Source: a virus
DNA length: 64,000 nucleotides
Strand: one strand, 5' to 3'
Virus record (IMG/VR): IMGVR_UViG_3300050496_000069
In this document: positions 2,927 to 59,035 of the stretch, in pieces
Numbering within the stretch: the stretch's first letter is position 1
How the letters are laid out: every line of letters starts with the position of its first letter
Notes under the pieces: generated by a model
What the model was told of the DNA's origin: nothing
Databases searched by the model: none
What the model saw: the letters and a program-made list of their open reading frames with translations, nothing else
Translations under genes and position numbers: made by a program

Positions 2927-3361
2927 TTATGCCGCCTCCTTCATCTCAGCCCGTTCGCGGATCGCGCCCATGATGTCCTTCACGGTCGTCCACGGCACGA
3001 CGACGGTGCGGGTACACTCCTCGCCGTCTGCGTCACGATCTTCGACGCCAAAGCTGAACTCGCCGATGTACGCCGCCTTGGTCGCGCCGCTCGGCGCCAG
3101 CGCCTCCTGCAATCGCTCGACCTTCCCCCGCAAATGCGCCAGAGAAAGATCGTGGAAGCACTCGTTGGTGAACTCCGGCGCCACATCAAGCGGGATGGCG
3201 TAGCTGTCGCGCTCCTTCGGCGTGTACCTCTCCTTGATAGGAATGCCGTGGCTGGTGAACTCTTCGGCGAGCCACCGCCCCGCCTTGTTTCGAATGCCGG
3301 TGTAGCCTTTGTGGCCTGGGCATTCGTACAGGTCTCGTTTCAGAAGCACGTACAGGGTCAT
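2927..3361 (-). CDS. Phage hypothetical protein
   Basis: 144 aa, ATGA-coupled to the HD gene. Confidence 0.65.
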   Translation of the reverse strand: MTLYVLLKRDLYECPGHKGYTGIRNKAGRWLAEEFTSHGIPIKERYTPKERDSYAIPLDVAPEFTNECFHDLSLAHLRGKVERLQEALAPSGATKAAYIGEFSFGVEDRDADGEECTRTVVVPWTTVKDIMGAIRERAEMKEAA

Positions 3362-3996
3362 GCCACCCTCCCCGCCGTCAACGCATCAAACGTCGCCAGG
3401 AACTCCAGCTCCGCTTCCTCCGGTGACCAGTACCGCAGCTTCACGCCCAGCGGCCTATCGTGCTTGGCGCGCCACGGCATGTCACGCAGGTTAACCAGTT
3501 CGTCGGCGATAATGCGGTTGTCCGCATCATGTACCTCGCGTGGCAACTCCCGGTCCAGCTGAAACCGGGCCGCGATAGCCAGCCAGTTGTCCTGCTCGAT
3601 GGCTCGGTAGTTCGTCAGGTACGGCTTCAGCGGCCGCGGAATGTCCACGCAGTAGGCTTCAGGTGCATCATGCATAAGGCCAGCCAAAGCGACCTCAGGC
3701 GCGCGTGTCGCCGCGAGGTGACGTGCGATAAGGACAGAGTGCTCGGCGACGCTATAGAACTTGATGCAGTGACCTGCGTAGCGGCATTGCAGGCTCAGCG
3801 AGTGCGCGATGTCCTCGATGTAGATTTCGTGCGGGCGCGGGTCCATCGGCCAGTATTTGCGGCCTGTGAAGGTCTGCATGAAGTCGCCGACGCGGGATGG
3901 CATGTTATCGTTGGCGGCCACGTACTTGTCCAGCGGGCCGAAGGTGGTTGGGGCGAGTTCTGCCGGTACGGCTTCTTCTCTTCGCATGAACATCAC
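3358..3996 (-). CDS. HD-domain phosphohydrolase (YfdR/YfbR-like 5'-deoxynucleotidase)
   Basis: IEDIAHSLSLQCRYAGH, FYSVAEHS and GLMHDAPEAYCVDIPRPLK motifs. Confidence 0.85.
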   Translation of the reverse strand: MMFMRREEAVPAELAPTTFGPLDKYVAANDNMPSRVGDFMQTFTGRKYWPMDPRPHEIYIEDIAHSLSLQCRYAGHCIKFYSVAEHSVLIARHLAATRAPEVALAGLMHDAPEAYCVDIPRPLKPYLTNYRAIEQDNWLAIAARFQLDRELPREVHDADNRIIADELVNLRDMPWRAKHDRPLGVKLRYWSPEEAELEFLATFDALTAGRVA

Positions 3997-4892: not shown

Positions 4893-4988
4893 ATGAATAT
4901 ACTAATCCGTGAATTCCTACGAACATTATTGCTGTTTGTGCTTGATGAAGTTTGGGAGATGATTAAGCGTTGGTGGGATGGCGATTAA
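4893..4988 (+). CDS. Candidate 31-aa hydrophobic/amphipathic peptide MNILIREFLRTLLLFVLDEVWEMIKRWWDGD
   Basis: ORF read by eye downstream of a very AT-rich patch; stop overlaps the stop of the minus-strand gene. Confidence 0.4.
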   Translation: MNILIREFLRTLLLFVLDEVWEMIKRWWDGD

Positions 4989-6244
4989 GCCACCCCACCC
5001 CGCTTAAGTTGCTCGTTATCATTCGCAGCCGCATATCGCCCGGCTACCATCTCCGGACGCAGCGTGGAGCGCGCCACTTCGCCATATCGGCGCGAGTATG
5101 TGATGACCTTGGCAGACCGACCCGACAGCCAACCGCCGCCAGCGGCATAAGCATCCGGCGCGGCAAGCGTTTCGTGGCGCTCGACATACATCAGCGCGGA
5201 CTTGCGGCCCTCATCGCTGTGCAGGTGGCCGGCATGAGCGAAGGCATATTTCGAAGCGCCGAACATCTCGCGGAACATACCAGCCAGCGTCGCATCGACC
5301 TGAGCCACGCCGCGCTTGTGTCCGTGATGGTAGAACAGCGCCGTGTCGCCCCACTTGTAGGCGTAGTAGAGCATCGGGCTGGTATCGACGGTTACTCTCG
5401 GCTCATTCTCATAGATCGTGGCCAACAACTCGCGCACCCATACCGATGAGGCCGGATCGTGATTGCCAGAAGCCATGACGATGTGAACGTGCTTGTGCTT
5501 CTGTAGAAGCATGTCGATGACAAGGCGCAATGTGCGGATAACGACGCGAACAACCTTATGCAGGCGAGAATCGGCATCAAGGACGTGCTTGTGCGCAGGT
5601 GTGACACTCTCGAGAGCGTCATGGTGTAAAAGGTCGCCGAGCTGCGCGAGAACGGCCGTGTGCGCCTGCGGAGCGCCTGCCACAGCGGCGGCGAACCAAT
5701 CCAGCAACAACTGCTCTGCCAGCCTTAGATCGTAGTCCGCGCCGGTTTCCTCACGATGCGCCAACATACCGAAATGGCTGTCGGTCACAACGAACTGGTT
5801 GAGCAAATCTTCTTCGACGTGCTGCGGCGCGGGCATGATGGTAATGCGCGGCAGGTCTTCCTTGAGGCCGTCGACCATCGCCTTGAAAACGGCAAGCTGG
5901 CCCTCCGCTTCCACAGCCGTCTTTTGCCACTGCTGGATAACGCGCCCCTCACCATCGACGAGGGCCGACACGCCTTTGACCACGTGGCCATTGGGGATGG
6001 CGAATTTTTCGCCGCGCTCCGGAGCCTGCTGAATGAATGTGCCGCTCGGCGTGTTGCTGATGCGGCTGATGCGGAATCCTGGGAGGACAGGATCTGTGCC
6101 AAGCAGGCCAGCCTCAGCTGCCCGTTTGAGGCTTTCAGCAAGCGCCGACTTGCCGATACCAAGTGCTGCGGCCGCTTTGATCAGCGTGCCGTGCTCTCGG
6201 TAGGCGTAGGCTCTTCGGCGGAGTTCTTCGGTGGGTAGAGGCAT
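4985..6244 (-). CDS. Calcineurin-like metallophosphoesterase/nuclease with N-terminal HTH-like segment
   Basis: TDSHFG, LGDLLHHD, SGNHD, YHHGH and GHLH motifs. Confidence 0.75.
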   Translation of the reverse strand: MPLPTEELRRRAYAYREHGTLIKAAAALGIGKSALAESLKRAAEAGLLGTDPVLPGFRISRISNTPSGTFIQQAPERGEKFAIPNGHVVKGVSALVDGEGRVIQQWQKTAVEAEGQLAVFKAMVDGLKEDLPRITIMPAPQHVEEDLLNQFVVTDSHFGMLAHREETGADYDLRLAEQLLLDWFAAAVAGAPQAHTAVLAQLGDLLHHDALESVTPAHKHVLDADSRLHKVVRVVIRTLRLVIDMLLQKHKHVHIVMASGNHDPASSVWVRELLATIYENEPRVTVDTSPMLYYAYKWGDTALFYHHGHKRGVAQVDATLAGMFREMFGASKYAFAHAGHLHSDEGRKSALMYVERHETLAAPDAYAAGGGWLSGRSAKVITYSRRYGEVARSTLRPEMVAGRYAAANDNEQLKRGGVA

Positions 6245-8216: not shown

Positions 8217-8682
8217 AGGAGTTTATTTGCTGTCGGATTACGGCGGCGAGCCTGTGGGAGTTTTATGCGAGGACTGCGAGCTTCTCAAATTCATCTGCAC
8301 TGCTGAACTAATGATCGAGTTTGGCGACTTACAAATGCCGACTTTGCTCGAAAAAATTTCGCAGGAGGTCCTCAAGTGCCCAAAGCCGATGAAGGGTTTC
8401 TCGGGACGATGCAGGCTCCGATACCACACTCGCTCCGGCAGCATTATGGAAGCATTGAAACAAGCGCCGCCTTCGCCCGTTAAGGTCAAGGAAATACGGA
8501 ACTGGGAGATTGTCGTTGCCAAGTGCAACTACTGCGGTCACGTTTCGAATATCCAGCATTGGCAGCTGAACTGCGTGGCTAAAACCGATACCACCGTCGA
8601 CGATATTGCCAAGCGGCTAAAGTGCAAAAGGTGCAACACCAAGGGTGACGTCAAAATCACCATAGCCAAGATGCCGAGGTGA
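8206..8682 (+). CDS. Putative zinc-binding protein (two Cys-cluster repeats)
   Basis: CEDC..CPK..RC and CNYCGH..CKRCN motifs. Confidence 0.65.
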   Translation: MPGKGVYLLSDYGGEPVGVLCEDCELLKFICTAELMIEFGDLQMPTLLEKISQEVLKCPKPMKGFSGRCRLRYHTRSGSIMEALKQAPPSPVKVKEIRNWEIVVAKCNYCGHVSNIQHWQLNCVAKTDTTVDDIAKRLKCKRCNTKGDVKITIAKMPR

Positions 8683-8684
8683 GC

Positions 8685-9347
8685 ATGTGTAATTTGTACC
8701 GTGTGAAGACCAATCAGGAATCTATCCGCGACATCGTGGGCATCATGCAGGAGCGGCTTAATCTGGAGCCAGACATTGAGGTCTATCCAGATCGGCCGGC
8801 GCCGGTGGTGCGCAACGGTGAGAGCGGCCGGGAGTTGGTCGGCCTGACGTGGGGTATGCCCTCGCCGCAGTTCGTCACGCAAGGCAAGCCTGACACCGGC
8901 GTGACCAACATCCGCAACGTCACGTCACCGCATTGGCGGCGGTGGCTTCGGGTAGAGAACCGGTGCGTGGTTCCGTGGACGACCTTTTGCGAATGGGAAG
9001 ATACCAAACCCCGGAAGACGAAGCGCTGGTTTGCTATCAACGAGGAAACGCCCCTCGCCTTCTTCGCCGGCATCTGGACGGACTGGCATGGCGTTCGGGG
9101 ATCTACGAAGAACCCGCGCGAAGGCGATCATCAGCTTTTTGCATTCCTGACGACCGACCCTAACGGCATTGTGAAGCCGATCCACCCGAAGGCTATGCCG
9201 GTCATTCTGACAAATAAGGATGAAGTGGAAACATGGCTGACCGCACCATGGGAAGAAGCGAAAGCGCTTCAGCGGCCACTGCCTGATGACGGCCTGGTGC
9301 TACTGCCTGTTGAGGAGGAGAGCAAGCCAGCCGATCTTTTTGGATGA
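8685..9347 (+). CDS. yedK: SOS response-associated peptidase SRAP (YedK/HMCES family, abasic-site protection)
   Basis: N-terminal M-C-N-L-Y (catalytic Cys2), NIRNV, RCVVP..FCEW, FFAGIW and IHPKAMPVIL motifs. Confidence 0.9.
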   Translation: MCNLYRVKTNQESIRDIVGIMQERLNLEPDIEVYPDRPAPVVRNGESGRELVGLTWGMPSPQFVTQGKPDTGVTNIRNVTSPHWRRWLRVENRCVVPWTTFCEWEDTKPRKTKRWFAINEETPLAFFAGIWTDWHGVRGSTKNPREGDHQLFAFLTTDPNGIVKPIHPKAMPVILTNKDEVETWLTAPWEEAKALQRPLPDDGLVLLPVEEESKPADLFG

Positions 9348-42592: not shown

Positions 42593-43414
42593 ATGTCCTG
42601 GGGATTCGATAAAGGTCGCATTTACAACAGACGCGCGAGCATTCACGCGCCGTTCGGCGGTCAGCAGCAGGGTGGCATCATCACCCCTAAGAAACATAAT
42701 CTCGTGATTATCGTCACAGGCGAAGAAGGTCACGAACATGGCTACAATGACACGTGGTCTCCAGATGGAAGGTTCGATTACTTTGGCGAGGGCCAAGTCG
42801 GCGACATGAAGATGGAGAAGGGCAATCTCGGTATTGCCAGCCATTCCGCCCGCGGCAAAAGCCTCTTACTCTTCACTAAACTGAAGACAGGCCTAAGGTT
42901 CGAAGGCGAGATGGTTTATGAGGGCCACAAGATCGTTAGAGCTCCAGACCGATTAGGGGATATGCGTGACGCCATAGTTTTTACCCTTCGCCCGATCGAC
43001 ACGGTGTTCGAGCAGGTCGAAACTATGCCCGTCGCTTCTCCACAGACAGCCAAGTCCTTGGATGAACTCAAGAAGCGCGCCTTTGCCGCATCTGTCCAGA
43101 AACCGACTAAAAATCAGGTGACTACGAGCGTCTTTGACAGAAGTCGTGACGTGCGAGATTACGTGGTTGCACGCTCTCTCGGCAAGTGCGAGGGCTGCGG
43201 TAATGACGCGCCTTTCACCAGGCCCAACGGCGTCCCCTACCTCGAGCCTCATCACATCCGCCGTCTCACGGATGGCGGGCCAGACGACCCGAGATTTGTC
43301 ATTGCGCTGTGCCCCAACTGTCATCGACGCGTTCATTCTGGAAGTGATGGTGCCGATTACAACGGCACCCTCCTCCACAAGATGAAAAGTATCGAGGCGG
43401 GCATTCTCACCTAA
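42593..43414 (+). CDS. SRA-like plus HNH endonuclease, candidate modification-dependent (type IV) restriction enzyme
   Basis: YNRRASIHAPFGGQQQGGI..GYND..YFGEGQVGDM..GN N-domain; CEGC..YLEPHHI..ALCPNCHRRVH. Confidence 0.75.
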   Translation: MSWGFDKGRIYNRRASIHAPFGGQQQGGIITPKKHNLVIIVTGEEGHEHGYNDTWSPDGRFDYFGEGQVGDMKMEKGNLGIASHSARGKSLLLFTKLKTGLRFEGEMVYEGHKIVRAPDRLGDMRDAIVFTLRPIDTVFEQVETMPVASPQTAKSLDELKKRAFAASVQKPTKNQVTTSVFDRSRDVRDYVVARSLGKCEGCGNDAPFTRPNGVPYLEPHHIRRLTDGGPDDPRFVIALCPNCHRRVHSGSDGADYNGTLLHKMKSIEAGILT

Positions 43415-43419
43415 CCGGC

Positions 43420-43794
43420 TCAAAAAGGCGCCTCACTCAAAGCCGCCCTTAGGCCTCTGGCACAGCCCTCCCACGCAGCCTTGACCATCATCCGCTGCAT
43501 GAGCTCGTCGAAGTGCGCGAGGTCAGTCACGCCATGCTTGGCGATGTACTCGCCGACGGCATCAACGCCGGCATCCAAGGCGCGCAGCTCGTAGTCGTCG
43601 AGCCGGTCGATCTTTTTGTAATTGTCGATGCCCACGGCGCACCTCCGGCAGATGTAATGAGGGTCCTTCTCTCGGCCGTTGGCGTTCACCCCGATTCCGA
43701 AGGCGTGCATGCCGCAGACAAAGCAGGTGGTCGGGTTATGATCGGCGTCTACAGTCGGAGTGTGCTGGCGGGGAGTGGTTGGGAGTTTGGTCAT
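43420..43794 (-). CDS. Phage hypothetical protein with Cys pairs
   Basis: CFVC..CRRC; ATGA coupled. Confidence 0.65.
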   Translation of the reverse strand: MTKLPTTPRQHTPTVDADHNPTTCFVCGMHAFGIGVNANGREKDPHYICRRCAVGIDNYKKIDRLDDYELRALDAGVDAVGEYIAKHGVTDLAHFDELMQRMMVKAAWEGCARGLRAALSEAPF

Positions 43795-44024
43795 GCTTGT
43801 GCCTCCGCCCATTTGATCCACGCCAAGAGCTTCTTTGCAGGAAAGCTACGCAGTCGGCTGCCGTCATCCTTGACCTGCAGCAGGTATCCACGCGGAAACT
43901 TCTCCGGTGGCTTGAAGCCCTGAGGCAAAACCAAAGCGACGCTAGCCTTGCTCTCTTCTAGACCTAGTTCGCGCGCACCTGTGAGGCTTGCGTTGCAGGC
44001 TTCTTTCATTTCGGCGGGGGTCAT
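43791..44024 (-). CDS. Phage hypothetical protein
   Basis: 77 aa, ATGA coupled on both sides. Confidence 0.65.
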   Translation of the reverse strand: MTPAEMKEACNASLTGARELGLEESKASVALVLPQGFKPPEKFPRGYLLQVKDDGSRLRSFPAKKLLAWIKWAEAQA

Positions 44025-45277
44025 GCTGCCACTCCAAACAAATCAGCACGCCGATTGTCATTTGCCGGTACCGCAGCGGGTTCGTCATCCTTGCTAGTCG
44101 CTCCAATCGCCCACGCAATTCGAGCAGTGGCGATAGGTATGTATTCGTCCTCACGCTCGCAGCCGATAAAATGAAAGCCCTCGAAAACAGCCGCCTTGCC
44201 TGTGCTCCCTGAGCCCATGAAAGGATCAAGAATTACGCCGCCGGGTGGCGTGATAAGGCGGCAGAGCCACTGCATAAGCGTGGTGGGCTTTACGGTTGGG
44301 TGGGTGTTGGCGCGGAGCGTTTTGCCTCGCTGATAGGCATTATCCGCAGCGACGGCCGGGCCGTCGCTCGTTGTCGACTTCGTTGCGCTTTCCAGACCAG
44401 CGTCTCTGTCGGCGCGGCTGGCCTTGGCGCAGTAGAAGAAGCGGGCTGCAGATTTGTCTAGTTCGATACGTGGCGCGAAGTGCTCTCGTGCGCCAAAGTC
44501 TCCGTAGACTCCTCGGCTTTCCTTCTTGCCGTGCTCTGGCCCAACGGCACGCTGCTGCCCTGGAGCATCAGGAAACGCTGCCAGCACCTCGTCGCTACCG
44601 TCGTGGATGATGTTGGCGGGCCAGCGGCCAATTGCTACCCGACCGTCGTCTTCTGCGCCCTTAAACTGTCCATAAATTTCATTGCGGCTTGCAGACGGGT
44701 TAAAACGCTCCTCATCTCCAACCCGACAACCATCCACATTGATCGCACCCACGCCCCACTCAGCAAGGTTAGCAGCGACGGTGCCAGTCAAAGGTTTTCG
44801 CGCTAGAGCAATAGGCTCCCATGCTGGCTTGAGTGCGGTACCCCAGCCCTCCCAATCGCCATGCTGGTTGTGAGACTTCGGAAAGCCCGACCCATAAACC
44901 CAGCCAAGTTGATCGCGGATCTCAAATCCAGCATCTTCGATCGCAACAGCCATACGGTGATAGGTTCGCGTGCCAGAGAATGCCACCACGTGGCCGCCTG
45001 GCTTCAAAGCGCGCAGAACTTCGGCCCAGAACTCCTCTGAGAATGCGACCTCTCCTGTATCCCACTGCTTGCCCATGAAACCGGCAGCCCCGCGACCATA
45101 AACGTCTTTGGCCGGGGCGGAACCCGGCTTTCCGAAACGCTTCTGGATCGAGACCAGCGCATAAGGCGGGTCGGTAACGACACTGTCGATCGAGTTGTCG
45201 GCAAGGCCGCGCAACACGTCGCGGCAATCGTTTTGGTGCAGCACGACTCTTCCGTCGTGCATCGAGGTGATGCTCAC
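44021..45277 (-). CDS. DNA amino-methyltransferase (N6-A/N4-C, beta-class order), orphan
   Basis: VVTDPPY catalytic motif precedes HPTVKP and LDPFMGSGSTG SAM-binding motif. Confidence 0.92.
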   Translation of the reverse strand: MSITSMHDGRVVLHQNDCRDVLRGLADNSIDSVVTDPPYALVSIQKRFGKPGSAPAKDVYGRGAAGFMGKQWDTGEVAFSEEFWAEVLRALKPGGHVVAFSGTRTYHRMAVAIEDAGFEIRDQLGWVYGSGFPKSHNQHGDWEGWGTALKPAWEPIALARKPLTGTVAANLAEWGVGAINVDGCRVGDEERFNPSASRNEIYGQFKGAEDDGRVAIGRWPANIIHDGSDEVLAAFPDAPGQQRAVGPEHGKKESRGVYGDFGAREHFAPRIELDKSAARFFYCAKASRADRDAGLESATKSTTSDGPAVAADNAYQRGKTLRANTHPTVKPTTLMQWLCRLITPPGGVILDPFMGSGSTGKAAVFEGFHFIGCEREDEYIPIATARIAWAIGATSKDDEPAAVPANDNRRADLFGVAA

Positions 45278-45386: not shown

Positions 45387-46115
45387 GTGGAAAATCTTAA
45401 GCGTTACTGGTGGGTAGGCGTCTGTTTGTGGGCTCTCCTCGCTTTTGTCTCATGGCACTATGACAGCACCTGCGGCATTTTTCTTTCCTCTGCATGCCTC
45501 TCCCAGTACTGGGAGGGCGTTCGGTGGATCGCCTTACTCAGATGGGTCTCTCCCTATCAGACACTCATCGCCGGCGTCTTTGCCGTAGCTGGTGGCGCGT
45601 TTGCACTGATAGCAGCTCGTCATTCAACTGCGACCGCTTTGGCCTTGGAAGATGCCAAGAATAAGAGATCAGCCGCAATAGCATGCTCGATCGTAGGCGA
45701 CGAATTCAGGGATGCCGCCTATCGAGCAAGCCAGAACTATGTGGGGGCCGGCCTAGCAATTATTGATCGCTCATCACCCTTTGTCCAAACAAACACGTTC
45801 ATCACAACTCTCCATGCGGTAGATCCAATGCTCGGGTCCATAGTTTCGGCGCAGCGTCGCGATATTGAAGAAGCGTTGTCATCAAGATCAATTCACGACC
45901 TCTATCGCACGCTCAGAGAGGCCAGGGCCAAAAGCTATGTTGTGTGGCACCTTCTGTTGAGCGTAGCAGAACAGTTAGACCAATCAGGCAGGTTCGACTT
46001 AAGCAATGGTGAAAAATTTTCTCCAGGGGATCTTCCGAACCTACTTAAGAGAGACAATGTAGACCCGAAGACTCTTGTTGGGCTTTATGGGCTTTTTGAT
46101 TGGCCCGAAACCTAA
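45387..46115 (+). CDS. Accessory membrane protein
   Basis: Two N-terminal TM segments (YQTLIAGVFAVAGGAFALIAA); antisense insertion. Confidence 0.65.
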   Translation: MENLKRYWWVGVCLWALLAFVSWHYDSTCGIFLSSACLSQYWEGVRWIALLRWVSPYQTLIAGVFAVAGGAFALIAARHSTATALALEDAKNKRSAAIACSIVGDEFRDAAYRASQNYVGAGLAIIDRSSPFVQTNTFITTLHAVDPMLGSIVSAQRRDIEEALSSRSIHDLYRTLREARAKSYVVWHLLLSVAEQLDQSGRFDLSNGEKFSPGDLPNLLKRDNVDPKTLVGLYGLFDWPET

Positions 46116-46633
46116 GCCACCCTCACCGACAGCTGCTCACCCGCCGCACCCATCTGCGCACCGCGGACCTTCTTGCCCGCCTGCAACGCTTCCTTGATGG
46201 CGGTCTTGTCCGGCGACGTAGAAACGCGCACGTAGGCCTTCGGTAACGCGGCCTCGTCAATGATCTCAACCGACGCTGCCTTCTTGCCGATGGAGATGGT
46301 CGCCTCAGCCAGCGGTACGCGCGGTACGCCGGCTGCTTTCAACAGCTTGAACATCAGACTGCGCATGGCTTCCTTGCGGCGATCGGCCCGCGACTTGCGT
46401 GCTTGTAGGTCGGAGATGCGGCCAGCCACGGCCTTGGCCAGGCTATCGGCATCGCGCTCGCCATTGACGAGGCGAGTCAGGACGGCGTGGAAGTTGGTCG
46501 CGCCTTCCAGCATGTCGGCGCGTAGCTCTTCGTCGGCCTCGAGCTCCGGATAAGCGGCCAGCATGTCGGCGAAGAGTGCTTCTAGGTTGGCGACGTCGGC
46601 GGCTAAGAAGTTGTCGTTAGCTGGTTTGGTCAT
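46112..46633 (-). CDS. Siphovirus Gp157-like protein
   Basis: VPLAEATISIGK..IIDEAALPKAY..PDKTAIKEALQAGKKVRGA. Confidence 0.85.
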   Translation of the reverse strand: MTKPANDNFLAADVANLEALFADMLAAYPELEADEELRADMLEGATNFHAVLTRLVNGERDADSLAKAVAGRISDLQARKSRADRRKEAMRSLMFKLLKAAGVPRVPLAEATISIGKKAASVEIIDEAALPKAYVRVSTSPDKTAIKEALQAGKKVRGAQMGAAGEQLSVRVA

Positions 46634-47548: not shown

Positions 47549-49303
47549 TCAGAACGGCACGTCATCGTCCATCAATACCCGCCAATCCTCTTCCTCTGGC
47601 ACGTTGTCATTCACCGGTGACACCCGATTGTCATTCGCAGCACCGACCGCATGGCCCACAACGTCCCAGTATTTCTGGCGCGGCTTAACCGTGATCTCGA
47701 CGGTGTCGGCCAACTCCGCCTGACGCTCGATCCATTCCAGCACAGACTTGGGAAACGGCATCTTGCCGCCATGCGCGCGCCAGTAGCGGTCGGCCTTGGA
47801 CTTCGGGAAGCCTTGGTGCTGAGGGCAGATCCACTCATTGATCGCGGTCATGCCGGACATGTAGCTGACCTTTACCGACGGCGGCTTATCGCCCTTCCCT
47901 TCGTGGTAGTAGAAACTGCGTGACGTCACTGTGCGAGGTTCTGGTTCTGCCGTCGACATGATCGGCGTGTCTGCTGCGGTCGCTGTGATCTTCGGGCTGT
48001 CATCGATGTCGAACTCATAGCCGCAGCAAGAGCACGTGCGCGCGGAGGCATGCACCTTTTCGCCACAGCCGAAGCGTCCATTCTTGTCCTCGACGTCGAA
48101 CGGGCACACCTTCACCGGCGCTTCGCCGTCGCCCTTGTTGGGCGTCTTTGGCTGCACCATGTCGACTGGTCCATGCTTGTCGACGAGACCGGCGAAATCC
48201 AGCACGAGGCACGAAGGTTTCGGACCAGCCTTGATCGCCGCTATGCGCTCTTCAGGCGTCTCAAGAGGCATGCCGGACGCGTATATGACGCGAGTGCCGC
48301 GGCCCATCATTTGCACATAGAGCGATACCGACAACGTCGGACGCAATGCCGCGATCAGGTCGACGCCCTTGTGATTGAAGCCGGTAGTGAGGACCGAGTT
48401 GTTGGTGAGCGCACGGATCTTGTAGGACTTGAAGTCCTCGATGATGCGCCGGCGCTCATCCTTCGGGGTTTCGCCGCTGATCATTTCGCATGATATGCCC
48501 CGCGATCGGATCTCATCACGCACGTGCTCGGCGTGCTCAACTCCCGAACAAAAGCAGAGCCACGACTTGCGGTCGGCGCCTTTCGCAACGATTTCATCAA
48601 CGGCGGAGCGCGTGACGTCCATCTTGTCCACGGCAGCCTGCAATGCTGACTGCTTGTAATCGCCTCCGTGCCTGCCGACGCCTTTCATGTCGAAGGTGGT
48701 TGCCGTTGCCTTGGACGAAAGTGGCGCGAGATAACCGTCGCTGACACCGTCGGCGATGCCGTAGGTGTAGACGATCTGGTCGAAGAGCCGATCGTCGCCT
48801 TCGTCCAGCCGACCTGTGTCCAGCCGGTAAGGCGTGGCGGTGAGCCCCAGGATCTTCATGTCTGGATTGATCGCGCGCAACGCCGCTATGAAGCGGCCGT
48901 ACATTGTGTTGCTGCTGGCGGGGATCAGATGGCACTCGTCCACCATCAGCACGTCGATATGCCCGATGAGCTCAGCTTTGCTGTGCACGGTCTGGATTCC
49001 CGCAAAGATGATCTGGCTACGCGCGTCACGGCGACCCAGGCCGGCGGAGAAAATGCCAGCGGGCGCAAACGGCCAAATGCCGAGCAACTCAAGATAATTC
49101 TGCTCGATCAGTTCGGCGACATGGGTAGCCACGAGGATCCGCATGTCCGGCCAGCCCTCGACCAGCCTCTTGATGAGGGAAGCCATCAGAAGGGACTTGC
49201 CGCATCCTGTTGCGAGATCGACAAGAGGATTGCCAGCCGTCGTTGACCAATAATCGAAAACGGCGTTTTCTGCCTCTTCCTGGTAGTGGCGAAGTTGGAG
49301 CAT
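47549..49303 (-). CDS. Superfamily II (DEAD/DEAH-type) helicase with zinc ribbon
   Basis: ATGCGKS, DECH, GLTATP, TTGFN and QMMGRGTR motifs; C-terminal CP..C..CSCC. Confidence 0.92.
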   Translation of the reverse strand: MLQLRHYQEEAENAVFDYWSTTAGNPLVDLATGCGKSLLMASLIKRLVEGWPDMRILVATHVAELIEQNYLELLGIWPFAPAGIFSAGLGRRDARSQIIFAGIQTVHSKAELIGHIDVLMVDECHLIPASSNTMYGRFIAALRAINPDMKILGLTATPYRLDTGRLDEGDDRLFDQIVYTYGIADGVSDGYLAPLSSKATATTFDMKGVGRHGGDYKQSALQAAVDKMDVTRSAVDEIVAKGADRKSWLCFCSGVEHAEHVRDEIRSRGISCEMISGETPKDERRRIIEDFKSYKIRALTNNSVLTTGFNHKGVDLIAALRPTLSVSLYVQMMGRGTRVIYASGMPLETPEERIAAIKAGPKPSCLVLDFAGLVDKHGPVDMVQPKTPNKGDGEAPVKVCPFDVEDKNGRFGCGEKVHASARTCSCCGYEFDIDDSPKITATAADTPIMSTAEPEPRTVTSRSFYYHEGKGDKPPSVKVSYMSGMTAINEWICPQHQGFPKSKADRYWRAHGGKMPFPKSVLEWIERQAELADTVEITVKPRQKYWDVVGHAVGAANDNRVSPVNDNVPEEEDWRVLMDDDVPF

Positions 49304-52181: not shown

Positions 52182-52469
52182 TCATAAATCCATCTCCTTC
52201 GTAAACAGGCAGCGGGCTGGCTTGTCAGGATCCTGCGTGAAAGCCAGACACCAAGGCATGCCACCGCGGCGCACCCAGTCGTCAGGCTGGCCGCCCCATA
52301 AGGCTTGCGACCGGATGACACAGACGCCGGGAACGTTGCTGCCAAACTCGTCTTCCCAGTTCTCGCCTTCATCGCTGCGACAGTGGCGGCACCAGTTGCG
52401 CTCGAAATCCTCGCCTTCGGTGGAGTTGGCGGGCCTCCAAAGCCCGCCGTTCTGGTTCTCGGCGCCCAT
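52182..52469 (-). CDS. Small Cys-rich phage protein
   Basis: PANSTEG..WCRHC..C..WCLAF. Confidence 0.6.
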   Translation of the reverse strand: MGAENQNGGLWRPANSTEGEDFERNWCRHCRSDEGENWEDEFGSNVPGVCVIRSQALWGGQPDDWVRRGGMPWCLAFTQDPDKPARCLFTKEMDL

Positions 52470-53521
52470 CAGACCCTCATAGGCATGCAAACGAGCGTAA
52501 GCCCCTCAAAGCCATCCGACGTGATCAGCCCCGGCGTGCCGCCATCCTGCAAGGCCAGCTTGACCGGCCCAGACGGCAACACGTTCAGCACGTCGCGGAC
52601 ATAGGCGGCGTTGAAACCGATATCCATTGGCTCGCCGCTATATTCCGCCTCGACTTCGTCATTCGCCGACGCCTCGCCTGCGGCCACAGCAAGTGCGATA
52701 CTGCCAGGTGCGATGCTGAACTTCACGGCGCGCCCACGTTCAGACGAAACCGTCGACACGCGGTCGGATGCCTTCATCAGCGCATCGCGATCGACCGTAA
52801 CGACACGCTCGTTGTTCTTGGGGATAACGCGCTCGTAGTCAGGGAACGTGCCGTCGATCAGCTTCGACGTAATGCGCACGTCATCCGACACGATGCGTAT
52901 TTTCTGTTGGCTTACCGCAACCTGCACCTTGCCCTTTGGAAGCAGGCTGACGGTCTTGCGCGGCACAATAATGCCCTCGAAGGCAGGCAGATCAGGGCCG
53001 TAGTGACGGCCCAGACGATGGCCATCGGTGGCTACGGCTTCCGACTTGCCACCGCCCTTGAAGAACACGCCGTTCAGATAATAGCGGGTTTCCTCGGTCG
53101 AAATGGCGAACGACACTGGCGCGAACAATCCTGCCAGATCGATCTCGAATTCAGCGTCGAACTTGTCGTCGCCGAGCGTTGGGAAGTCACCTGCTGACAG
53201 CGTGGCAAGAGAAAAGCGCGACCGTCCGGACTTCACCAGAAGCTTGTCACCATCCAGTGTCATGGTGATGTCGCCGGTTGCCTTGCGTGCGATGTCGTTG
53301 AGCAGCTTCGCGCTGACGCAGATGTTGCCTGGCTTGCCGACCTCAGCAGGCACGCCTGCGGTGGCGATAATGTCGAGGTCAGTTGCGGTGATCGCAAGGC
53401 CCTCACCTGCGGCCGCAACTTGCACGCTCGACAGGATGGGAATGGTGGATCTTGCCTCGACGACCTTCGTTGTGGCCGCAAGCGCACGCGTCAGGTCTTC
53501 CTTGTGGATGACAAGGTGCAT
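52469..53521 (-). CDS. dnaN: DNA polymerase III beta sliding clamp (phage copy)
   Basis: ATDLD, STEETRYYLNGV, ATDGHRL, SKLIDGTFPDYERVIP and LVCMPMRV motifs. Confidence 0.95.
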   Translation of the reverse strand: MHLVIHKEDLTRALAATTKVVEARSTIPILSSVQVAAAGEGLAITATDLDIIATAGVPAEVGKPGNICVSAKLLNDIARKATGDITMTLDGDKLLVKSGRSRFSLATLSAGDFPTLGDDKFDAEFEIDLAGLFAPVSFAISTEETRYYLNGVFFKGGGKSEAVATDGHRLGRHYGPDLPAFEGIIVPRKTVSLLPKGKVQVAVSQQKIRIVSDDVRITSKLIDGTFPDYERVIPKNNERVVTVDRDALMKASDRVSTVSSERGRAVKFSIAPGSIALAVAAGEASANDEVEAEYSGEPMDIGFNAAYVRDVLNVLPSGPVKLALQDGGTPGLITSDGFEGLTLVCMPMRV

Positions 53522-58449: not shown

Positions 58450-58694
58450 TCGAGACCCTCCGGCTTGATCATCCGTGGATATGCGAAAGGATGAGCGCAA
58501 TTGTCGTCAGGGATAATGATTACAAACATATCGTCACCAAGAGTGCTGATACCTGGCATGCCGCCGTTCTCAGCGACGATGTGCTCGCGCTGGATGGTGA
58601 AAACGTCAGCCGTCGGAAAGACCCCGCGGCCTTCGTATTTCCACTTCCCGCTCTCCTTGAAATACAGGTACGTGCAGTCCTCTTGCCGGGTCAT
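58446..58694 (-). CDS. Phage hypothetical protein
   Basis: YFKESGKWKYEG motif; coupled genes. Confidence 0.65.
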   Translation of the reverse strand: MTRQEDCTYLYFKESGKWKYEGRGVFPTADVFTIQREHIVAENGGMPGISTLGDDMFVIIIPDDNCAHPFAYPRMIKPEGLE

Positions 58695-59035
58695 GCCGCC
58701 ACCCCACGCAGAGCATACTCATTGACTGCCTGCCCGGCCTGCAAGTCAGCATCGTCGATGTTGTCGTTCGCAGCGACGCGCGGCAGCGAAACTGGCATGT
58801 GGCCGGATAGCGTAGAGCAACCGCCGTTGTGCGGCGCCAAGTGCGTCACGCGGTCGGGATTGTTGTCGTTGGCCGGGATGAAGGTGCGCTGCTTCTGCAG
58901 GCCGTATGTGCGCCGCAGCCGCTGGTATGCGGCCATTGGCTTGACGTTGTGTCTGGCGGCAATATCTGCGACGCTCTCGCCGTTCTCACGGCGCGCGTGC
59001 ATATCCGCCAGCATAGTGCTGGTGATAAGCGTCAT
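58691..59035 (-). CDS. HTH protein, first gene of the main leftward early operon
   Basis: GESVADIAARHNVKPMAAYQRL. Confidence 0.65.
   Translation of the reverse strand: MTLITSTMLADMHARRENGESVADIAARHNVKPMAAYQRLRRTYGLQKQRTFIPANDNNPDRVTHLAPHNGGCSTLSGHMPVSLPRVAANDNIDDADLQAGQAVNEYALRGVAA

Follow-up and report, generated by a model that had tools for sequence, protein, structure and literature searches.

A phage DNA methyltransferase ends in a modular tail with ssrA-tag-like ends around a conserved clamp-binding-type motif

The 64,000-nucleotide DNA of virus record IMGVR_UViG_3300050496_000069 (the window, meaning the whole stretch analysed) encodes an orphan β-class DNA amino-methyltransferase of 418 residues (44021–45277, minus strand) whose C-terminus recalls the ssrA peptide, the degradation tag encoded by transfer-messenger RNA (tmRNA). 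The window is a complete 64-kb virus record, with the temperate rhizobial phages 16-3 and RHph_X2_25 as kin. A preliminary description, made from the sequence alone, had called the end of this enzyme an almost complete, genome-encoded ssrA tag. Judged by comparison with its homologues, the methyltransferase tail is a modular one, with the working ends of an ssrA tag arranged around a conserved clamp-binding-type motif, and is not a copied tag. It goes beyond chance: around NDN, LF and the final Ala-Ala, which homologues retain, the linker is hypervariable. The tail combines already known kinds of signal in a new variant and does not constitute a new category of signal.

The enzyme ends in PANDNRRADLFGVAA, also read as ...DDEPAAVPANDNRRADLFGVAA. 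In an AlphaFold model built with 34 homologues, the core is confident and the last helix spans residues 380–395, followed by a 21-residue segment (residues 398–418; 44024–44086, minus strand, as are all tail features below) that has a predicted local distance difference test (pLDDT) score below 50 and no secondary structure; the tag-like feature therefore sits in a disordered tail, an assignment that also draws on the hypervariable alignment of this region. ANDN occupies residues 405–408 (44054–44065) and is followed by ten residues ending in VAA, just as the preliminary description had it and as reading of the open frame 44021–45277 bears out. With the preceding proline it forms P-A-N-D-N (residues 404–408; 44054–44068), a copy of the ssrA-tag head and a candidate SspB-binding motif on the basis of the host tag match, conservation and model contacts. 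A-D-L-F (residues 411–414; 44036–44047) resembles, by homologue comparison, the core of a β-clamp-binding pentapeptide, without the usual Gln. It begins two residues after ANDN and ends two residues before the terminal Ala-Ala. The extreme C-terminus, V-A-A (44024–44032), looks like a ClpX C-degron, and AA ends are conserved.

We fetched 80 viral and 28 bacterial loci encoding relatives of the methyltransferase. Beyond the last helix, approximately 19 homologues from 16-3-like rhizobial phages have a tail of hypervariable length and sequence, except for three islands—[A/P]-A-N-D-N, [D/S]-L-F and the final A-A. NDN is conserved at 90% or above among the homologues, with codon variation between AAT and AAC and between GAC and GAT; at LF, Leu uses six codons and Phe two. 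Synonymous variation in the Asn, Asp, Phe and Leu codons implies that selection acts on the peptide. A DNA-level motif is ruled out, since the varying positions are synonymous ones only. An AA end closes 17 of the 19 tabulated homologue tails and 38 of the 71 distinct tails of the wider family. Between 4 and 16 residues separate ANDN from the final AA, and in one homologue (L017; 8937–9146, plus strand) the modules are reordered (...TPDLFSANDNAPRAAA), with the LF hook ahead of the ANDN head. The varying spacing and this altered order therefore define the tail parts as separable modules, not a copied unit. The nearest bacterial copies of the methyltransferase belong to prophages, in Agrobacterium burrii (...VPANDNRPADLFSEAA) and a Rhizobiales isolate (...VPANDNVRADLFGVAA).

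The hosts of these two prophages have the tmRNA tag ANDNNAKEYALAA, and two other alphaproteobacterial hosts have ANDNYAEARLAA and ANDNVRMNEVRLAA. Set against the host tags, the ANDN of the PANDN head is identical to the SspB-binding start, and a free-carboxylate Ala-Ala lies at the very end after a hydrophobic residue (V-A-A, then the stop codon). The tail belongs to the open reading frame and is not added by tmRNA. Its middle, RRADLFGV, has no counterpart in any of the compared tags and contains nothing like NAKEYAL. What survives of the preliminary "almost complete" tag is thus the pair of ends, an ANDN head matching the host tag and a V-A-A terminus, both conserved; the rest does not hold, given a middle without a tag counterpart, a spacing of 4 to 16 residues and the reordered L017.

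The middle of the tail has relatives of its own. At the RADLF position, homologues read QLSLF (L008), QLDLF (L032), QLDMF (L102), QRDLF (L085) and QASLF (L084), and other phages read QQDLF (Pseudomonas phage Dolphis), QHDMF (Pseudomonas phage Touem01) and DLPLF (Caulobacter phage DMCA). These readings conform to the β-clamp-binding consensus QL(S/D)LF, which is found at the C-termini of bacterial clamp partners (PMC9690074). Compared with a QL[SD]LF-like motif in a disordered terminus, RADLF of the window keeps the core without the Gln, in a tail that is predicted to be disordered. A [DSPGA][LM]F sequence occurs within the last 20 residues of 40 of the 71 distinct tails, versus 3.6% of 2484 control open reading frame ends from the same loci. 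The hook usually lies 2–4 residues ahead of Ala-Ala, and outside the ANDN lineage no other part of the tail is as well conserved as this middle motif. Homologues from gammaproteobacterial (Pseudomonas), betaproteobacterial and other alphaproteobacterial (Caulobacter) phages carry the clamp motif and the terminal AA with no ANDN; hook and AA are therefore the older pair, with ANDN inserted in front of them in the rhizobial lineage. From these comparisons, ADLF is probably a clamp hook.

A candidate partner for ADLF is encoded by the phage itself, in the form of a DNA polymerase III β sliding clamp (52469–53521, minus strand; PF00712, PF02767 and PF02768 all matched). The pentapeptide seen in the methyltransferase tail also closes an SRAP (abasic-site sensor) protein (8679–9347, plus strand; PF02586, E = 1e-28), which ends in ...KPADLFG. 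The human SRAP protein HMCES has C-terminal PIP (PCNA-interacting protein) motifs for PCNA (PMC9067407), and by analogy the KPADLFG end may be their bacterial or phage counterpart. A literature search found no description of a clamp-bound DNA methyltransferase of bacteria or phages.

Escherichia coli SspB binds the tag's first seven residues, and ClpX takes the end (PMC9963277). In a random-tag screen in the same species, terminal Ala-Ala was critical for ClpXP C-degrons yet insufficient by itself, and upstream residues modulated their strength (PMC10862746). The F-G-V-A-A end is compatible with these rules, derived as they are in another species. In the hosts, sspB adjoins ssrA, lying approximately 200–260 bases from the tmRNA gene in three Rhizobiales genomes (L112/L115, Agrobacterium burrii; L111/L116; L110/L114). 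An Afipia genome has a weak second, partial tmRNA-like match beside sspB (37.6 bits, below the cut-off), with the full tmRNA gene elsewhere. In the phage we found neither a tmRNA gene nor an SspB-like gene; the phage-encoded SspB described in Pseudomonas phage pf16 is a separate matter. Host SspB has almost the same sequence as the Agrobacterium protein of PDB 2NYS and is homologous to Caulobacter SspB-α (2QAS and 2QAZ, the latter solved with a tag peptide). We take residue-level SspB-α specificity solely from PDB entries and from the model that follows.

We modelled two copies of the substrate-binding domain of SspB in complex with the 30 C-terminal residues of the methyltransferase, supplying alignments for both. 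The SspB–tail complex scores 0.68, against 0.01 for the best control; of 80 solved complexes, 58 attain the score mark used, as do 2 of 110 mismatched pairs, counts that are only roughly valid for this SspB–tail job. The three runs have 80% or more of their contacts in common, with a partner pLDDT of no less than 54. The confident interface comprises residues 401–411, tightest at P404, A405, N406, D407 and N408, and no contacts with an expected error below 8 Å are reported for the DLF and VAA residues. Guided by this modelled contact, we lean slightly towards PANDN of the methyltransferase tail binding host SspB. Turnover of the enzyme by an SspB/ClpXP-dependent route is possible, at somewhat less than an even chance.

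The end of the methyltransferase gene, TTT GGA GTG GCA GCA TGA, also serves its neighbour. The stop codon overlaps the next ATG as ATGA, and the downstream gene (43791–44024, minus strand; 77 residues, no Pfam match) is translationally coupled to the methyltransferase. Its coupling signals (44022–44035, read from the sequence) are a Shine–Dalgarno (SD) GGAG at 44032–44035, inside the codons for Gly-Val, and, in the ATGA overlap, its ATG at 44022–44024. The preliminary description had itself cautioned that ribosome-binding sites and ATGA coupling of adjacent genes can create AA or VA ends. This caution applies to the Gly-Val codons and the last GCA; it does not account for the conservation of Ala-Ala. 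AA ends occur in 13 of the 88 window proteins versus 1.2 expected, and their share is equal in overlapping (4/23) and non-overlapping (9/65) genes. Among methyltransferase homologues, the last Ala codon is GCA at ATGA junctions and GCG or GCC at some TAATG junctions, the penultimate one is GCA or GCC, and AA is retained while the gene that follows varies among relatives (some eight different N-termini). That SD/ATGA coupling alone produces the AA end is ruled out by the equal AA share without overlap, the TAATG junctions, the other codons and the differing downstream genes.

The ANDN motif is not confined to the methyltransferase. No other tetrapeptide of the window is as strongly over-represented: a crude gene set contains 13 copies where 0.13 would be expected (approximately 100-fold), and 2000 shuffles gave 3 at most; chance or composition as its source is ruled out by these shuffle and k-mer tests. 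A six-frame scan of the window gives 19 copies, of which 18 fall in open frames of substantial size, and refined gene calls place 16 copies in 14 proteins. All carriers are non-structural and hold the motif at N-termini, in linkers or in C-terminal tails. Endings in AA or VA characterize 8 of the 14 ANDN proteins and 8 of the 74 others (Fisher p = 3e-4). The preliminary count of five ANDN proteins ending in AA and three in VA proved accurate, at 5/14 and 3/14. Across the clade loci, 72 of 135 ANDN open reading frames end in this way versus 82 of 1045 others, figures that are phylogenetically non-independent and whose second group is diluted by spurious frames.

The ends that the preliminary description had compared with that of the methyltransferase also read as it stated, the 4985 gene finishing in ...AAANDNEQLKRGGVA and the 58691 gene in AANDN...NEYALRGVAA. 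Five minus-strand ANDN proteins (3358–3993, 4985–6244, 46112–46633, 58691–59035 and 44021–45277) end in [R/G]-V-A or G-V-A-A, namely GRVA, GGVA, VRVA, GVAA and GVAA, respectively, encoded by a common GGNGTGGC-like string; the following gene is overlapped by three of these genes but not by the other two. The protein at 58691–59035 (minus strand) is a small helix-turn-helix protein with two ANDN motifs and the end ...NEYALRGVAA. Its NEYAL resembles the KEYAL of the Agrobacterium-type tag ANDNNAKEYALAA, so that its C-terminal half is tag-like too. A SNF2/DEAD-type helicase (47549–49303, minus strand) has ANDN and VNDN 25 and 17 residues from its end and finishes in ...MDDDVPF, resembling the acidic tip of single-stranded DNA-binding (SSB) proteins.

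Loci of the 16-3-like clade contain 4–15 ANDN copies per 10–21 kb, and all other loci, among them prophages of Afipia, Devosia, Methylobacterium, Sphingomonas and Mycoplana, contain 0 or 1. Enterobacterial relatives show no enrichment of ANDE. General mimicry of host tags across phages is ruled out, as other alphaproteobacterial phages are without ANDN and the enterobacterial relatives give no ANDE signal. A literature search found no description of an ANDN motif in phages.

Anatomy, conservation and enrichment are direct observations; the explanation that we favour is that three short linear motifs interleave in the tail (the head for SspB, the hook for a clamp, the end for ClpX), a composite reading whose chances we put at about even. 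P-A-N-D-N would copy the head of the host tmRNA tag and most likely dock in the peptide groove of the host adaptor SspB, the contact that was modelled. A-D-L-F would be a degenerate β-clamp-binding motif, most likely hooking the enzyme to the phage DnaN homologue or to the host clamp, such that the methyltransferase would act on newly replicated DNA. The terminal V-A-A would be a ClpX-type C-degron and, together with the ANDN head, would render free methyltransferase an SspB-assisted ClpXP substrate. Clamp binding and ClpXP degradation we infer, and the same holds for their mutual exclusion: because the hook lies between head and end with two-residue gaps, the enzyme should be unable to bind the clamp and engage SspB/ClpX at once. 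The tail was not taken from tmRNA whole, ANDN having been added in one rhizobial phage lineage in front of an older clamp hook and AA. A further step, in which the tail is a clamp-gated degron—docking on the clamp masks the SspB head and the ClpX end, and off the clamp SspB and ClpXP destroy the enzyme—is unlikely. Were it true, methylation would be limited to replicating phage DNA, and the phage would have used its copy of the host ssrA-tag head to build a bacterial equivalent of eukaryotic PIP degrons.

The composite reading competes with others. The whole tail could imitate the entire tmRNA tag as a single unit, its middle a mere spacer with no clamp role. In favour of this, ANDN plus ten residues ending in VAA comes within one residue of the host and Caulobacter tag lengths, the SspB–tail model passes, and ANDN proteins tend towards AA or VA ends. 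Against it, the middle is the part of the tail that is best conserved outside the ANDN lineage, and it matches clamp motifs; RRADLFGV is unlike NAKEYAL throughout, the ANDN–AA distance varies from 4 to 16, and L017 has LF ahead of ANDN. We regard imitation of the entire tag as improbable. The resemblance could instead be a functionless by-product of Ala-rich composition and the SD/ATGA junction, as GGAG and ATGA do fall in the last four codons and the stop codon. This is very improbable indeed, with ANDN enriched approximately 100-fold, with NDN, LF and AA conserved through synonymous changes, with AA retained at TAATG junctions and before differing downstream genes, and with AA ends no commoner in overlapping genes.

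A more serious competitor keeps the clamp hook and assigns ANDN to a non-proteolytic role, possibly recognition by a phage-encoded hub protein that brings early proteins together, or sequestration of SspB as a decoy, with AA being no degron. We give this minor but real weight. ANDN is restricted to one phage lineage even though many alphaproteobacterial phages meet the same host tag; its copies include N-terminal and linker ones and some in proteins that do not end in AA; AA ends are frequent in phages that lack the motif; and the [LM]F-x(2–4)-AA end is older than ANDN. Such a reader sits less easily with the identity of ANDN to the host tag head, the placement of ANDN in the SspB groove by a model whose controls are clean, the strong statistical link between ANDN and AA/VA ends, and the lack of any SspB-like gene found in the phage.

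Several of our observations count against the three-motif interpretation of the tail. Six of the 14 ANDN proteins end in neither AA nor VA, and many ANDN motifs are N-terminal or in linkers, so ANDN cannot serve solely as a piece of a C-terminal degron. Other alphaproteobacterial phages that face the same host ANDN tag and SspB carry no ANDN, making the motif a lineage trait. ANDN may have a reader other than SspB (for example, a phage-encoded one) or an SspB-decoy role. Loci without ANDN, from proteobacterial phages and prophages, have 6.5% AA-ended open reading frames versus 1.2% expected, an excess of approximately fivefold. The SD and ATGA belonging to the next gene place constraints on the codons for Gly-Val and on the final Ala's GCA, and the window's own clamp motif, RADLF, lacks the Gln. 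The pass of the SspB–tail model may simply echo the already solved Caulobacter complex 2QAZ; because that structure exists, the pass establishes only a likeness to the tag–SspB complex, not binding of the phage copy.

The enzyme that bears the tail falls among the β-class N6-adenine/N4-cytosine DNA methyltransferases by motif order and Pfam score. It matches PF01555 (N6_N4_Mtase, E = 9e-30) with 104.8 bits against a cut-off of 26.7. Its DPPY catalytic motif (residues 36–39) precedes an FxGxG S-adenosylmethionine-binding motif, the binding block lying near the C-terminus, and D36-P37-P38-Y39 and G355/G357 are invariant in the 34 homologues. The closest solved relative is CcrM (PDB 6PBD), with a sequence match limited to residues 324–397. 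Across the whole window, GANTC, the CcrM site, is found 80 times against 241 expected from base composition, and GATC and GCGC are over-represented. On the opposite strand, a 273-residue protein (42593–43414, plus strand) is encoded between the primase gene and the DUF6511 gene, the latter two genes downstream of the methyltransferase. Its N-terminal domain is without a Pfam family match and its C-terminal one is an HNH nuclease domain; the protein may be a modification-dependent nuclease moron.

If the methyltransferase tail works as the composite reading has it, the phage would set the place and duration of methyltransferase action with three tiny peptide modules, one originating in the host quality-control tag and one in the tool-belt code of the replisome. 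It would offer a simple, testable case of an interleaved degron and clamp-binding motif in bacteria, and a handle on the apparently unpublished ANDN motif in early proteins of 16-3-like rhizobial phages. For claims of ssrA mimicry more widely, the lesson is to compare the middle of a tail with its homologues before calling it a tag copy.

With the ssrA tag, the phage tail has in common an ANDN head with Ala or Pro in front, a hydrophobic residue plus Ala-Ala at the end, and a head-to-end distance within one residue of the host tag. It differs in being gene-encoded, not trans-translated, in having another conserved motif in the middle and in a spacing and order that vary between homologues; in the phage, moreover, the ANDN head recurs at N-termini and in linkers. 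With bacterial clamp partners, it shares a short motif with a [DS]-[LM]-F core in a disordered C-terminus, exact QLSLF or QLDLF in homologues and a clamp gene in the same phage, whereas the Gln is missing from the window copy and the motif is followed by a further 2 to 9 residues with Ala-Ala at their end. CcrM, the methyltransferase that alphaproteobacteria time to the cell cycle, owes its short life to proteolysis, which restricts methylation to a time window. The phage enzyme shares its β-class fold; CcrM, however, is degraded by Lon and not via an ssrA-like tail such as the phage methyltransferase carries. In eukaryotes, a PIP box tethers the methyltransferase DNMT1 to the clamp PCNA, and PIP degrons intertwine a degron with a clamp-binding motif. 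The phage tail resembles these PCNA-linked cases by analogy only, as clamp, motifs and protease all differ.

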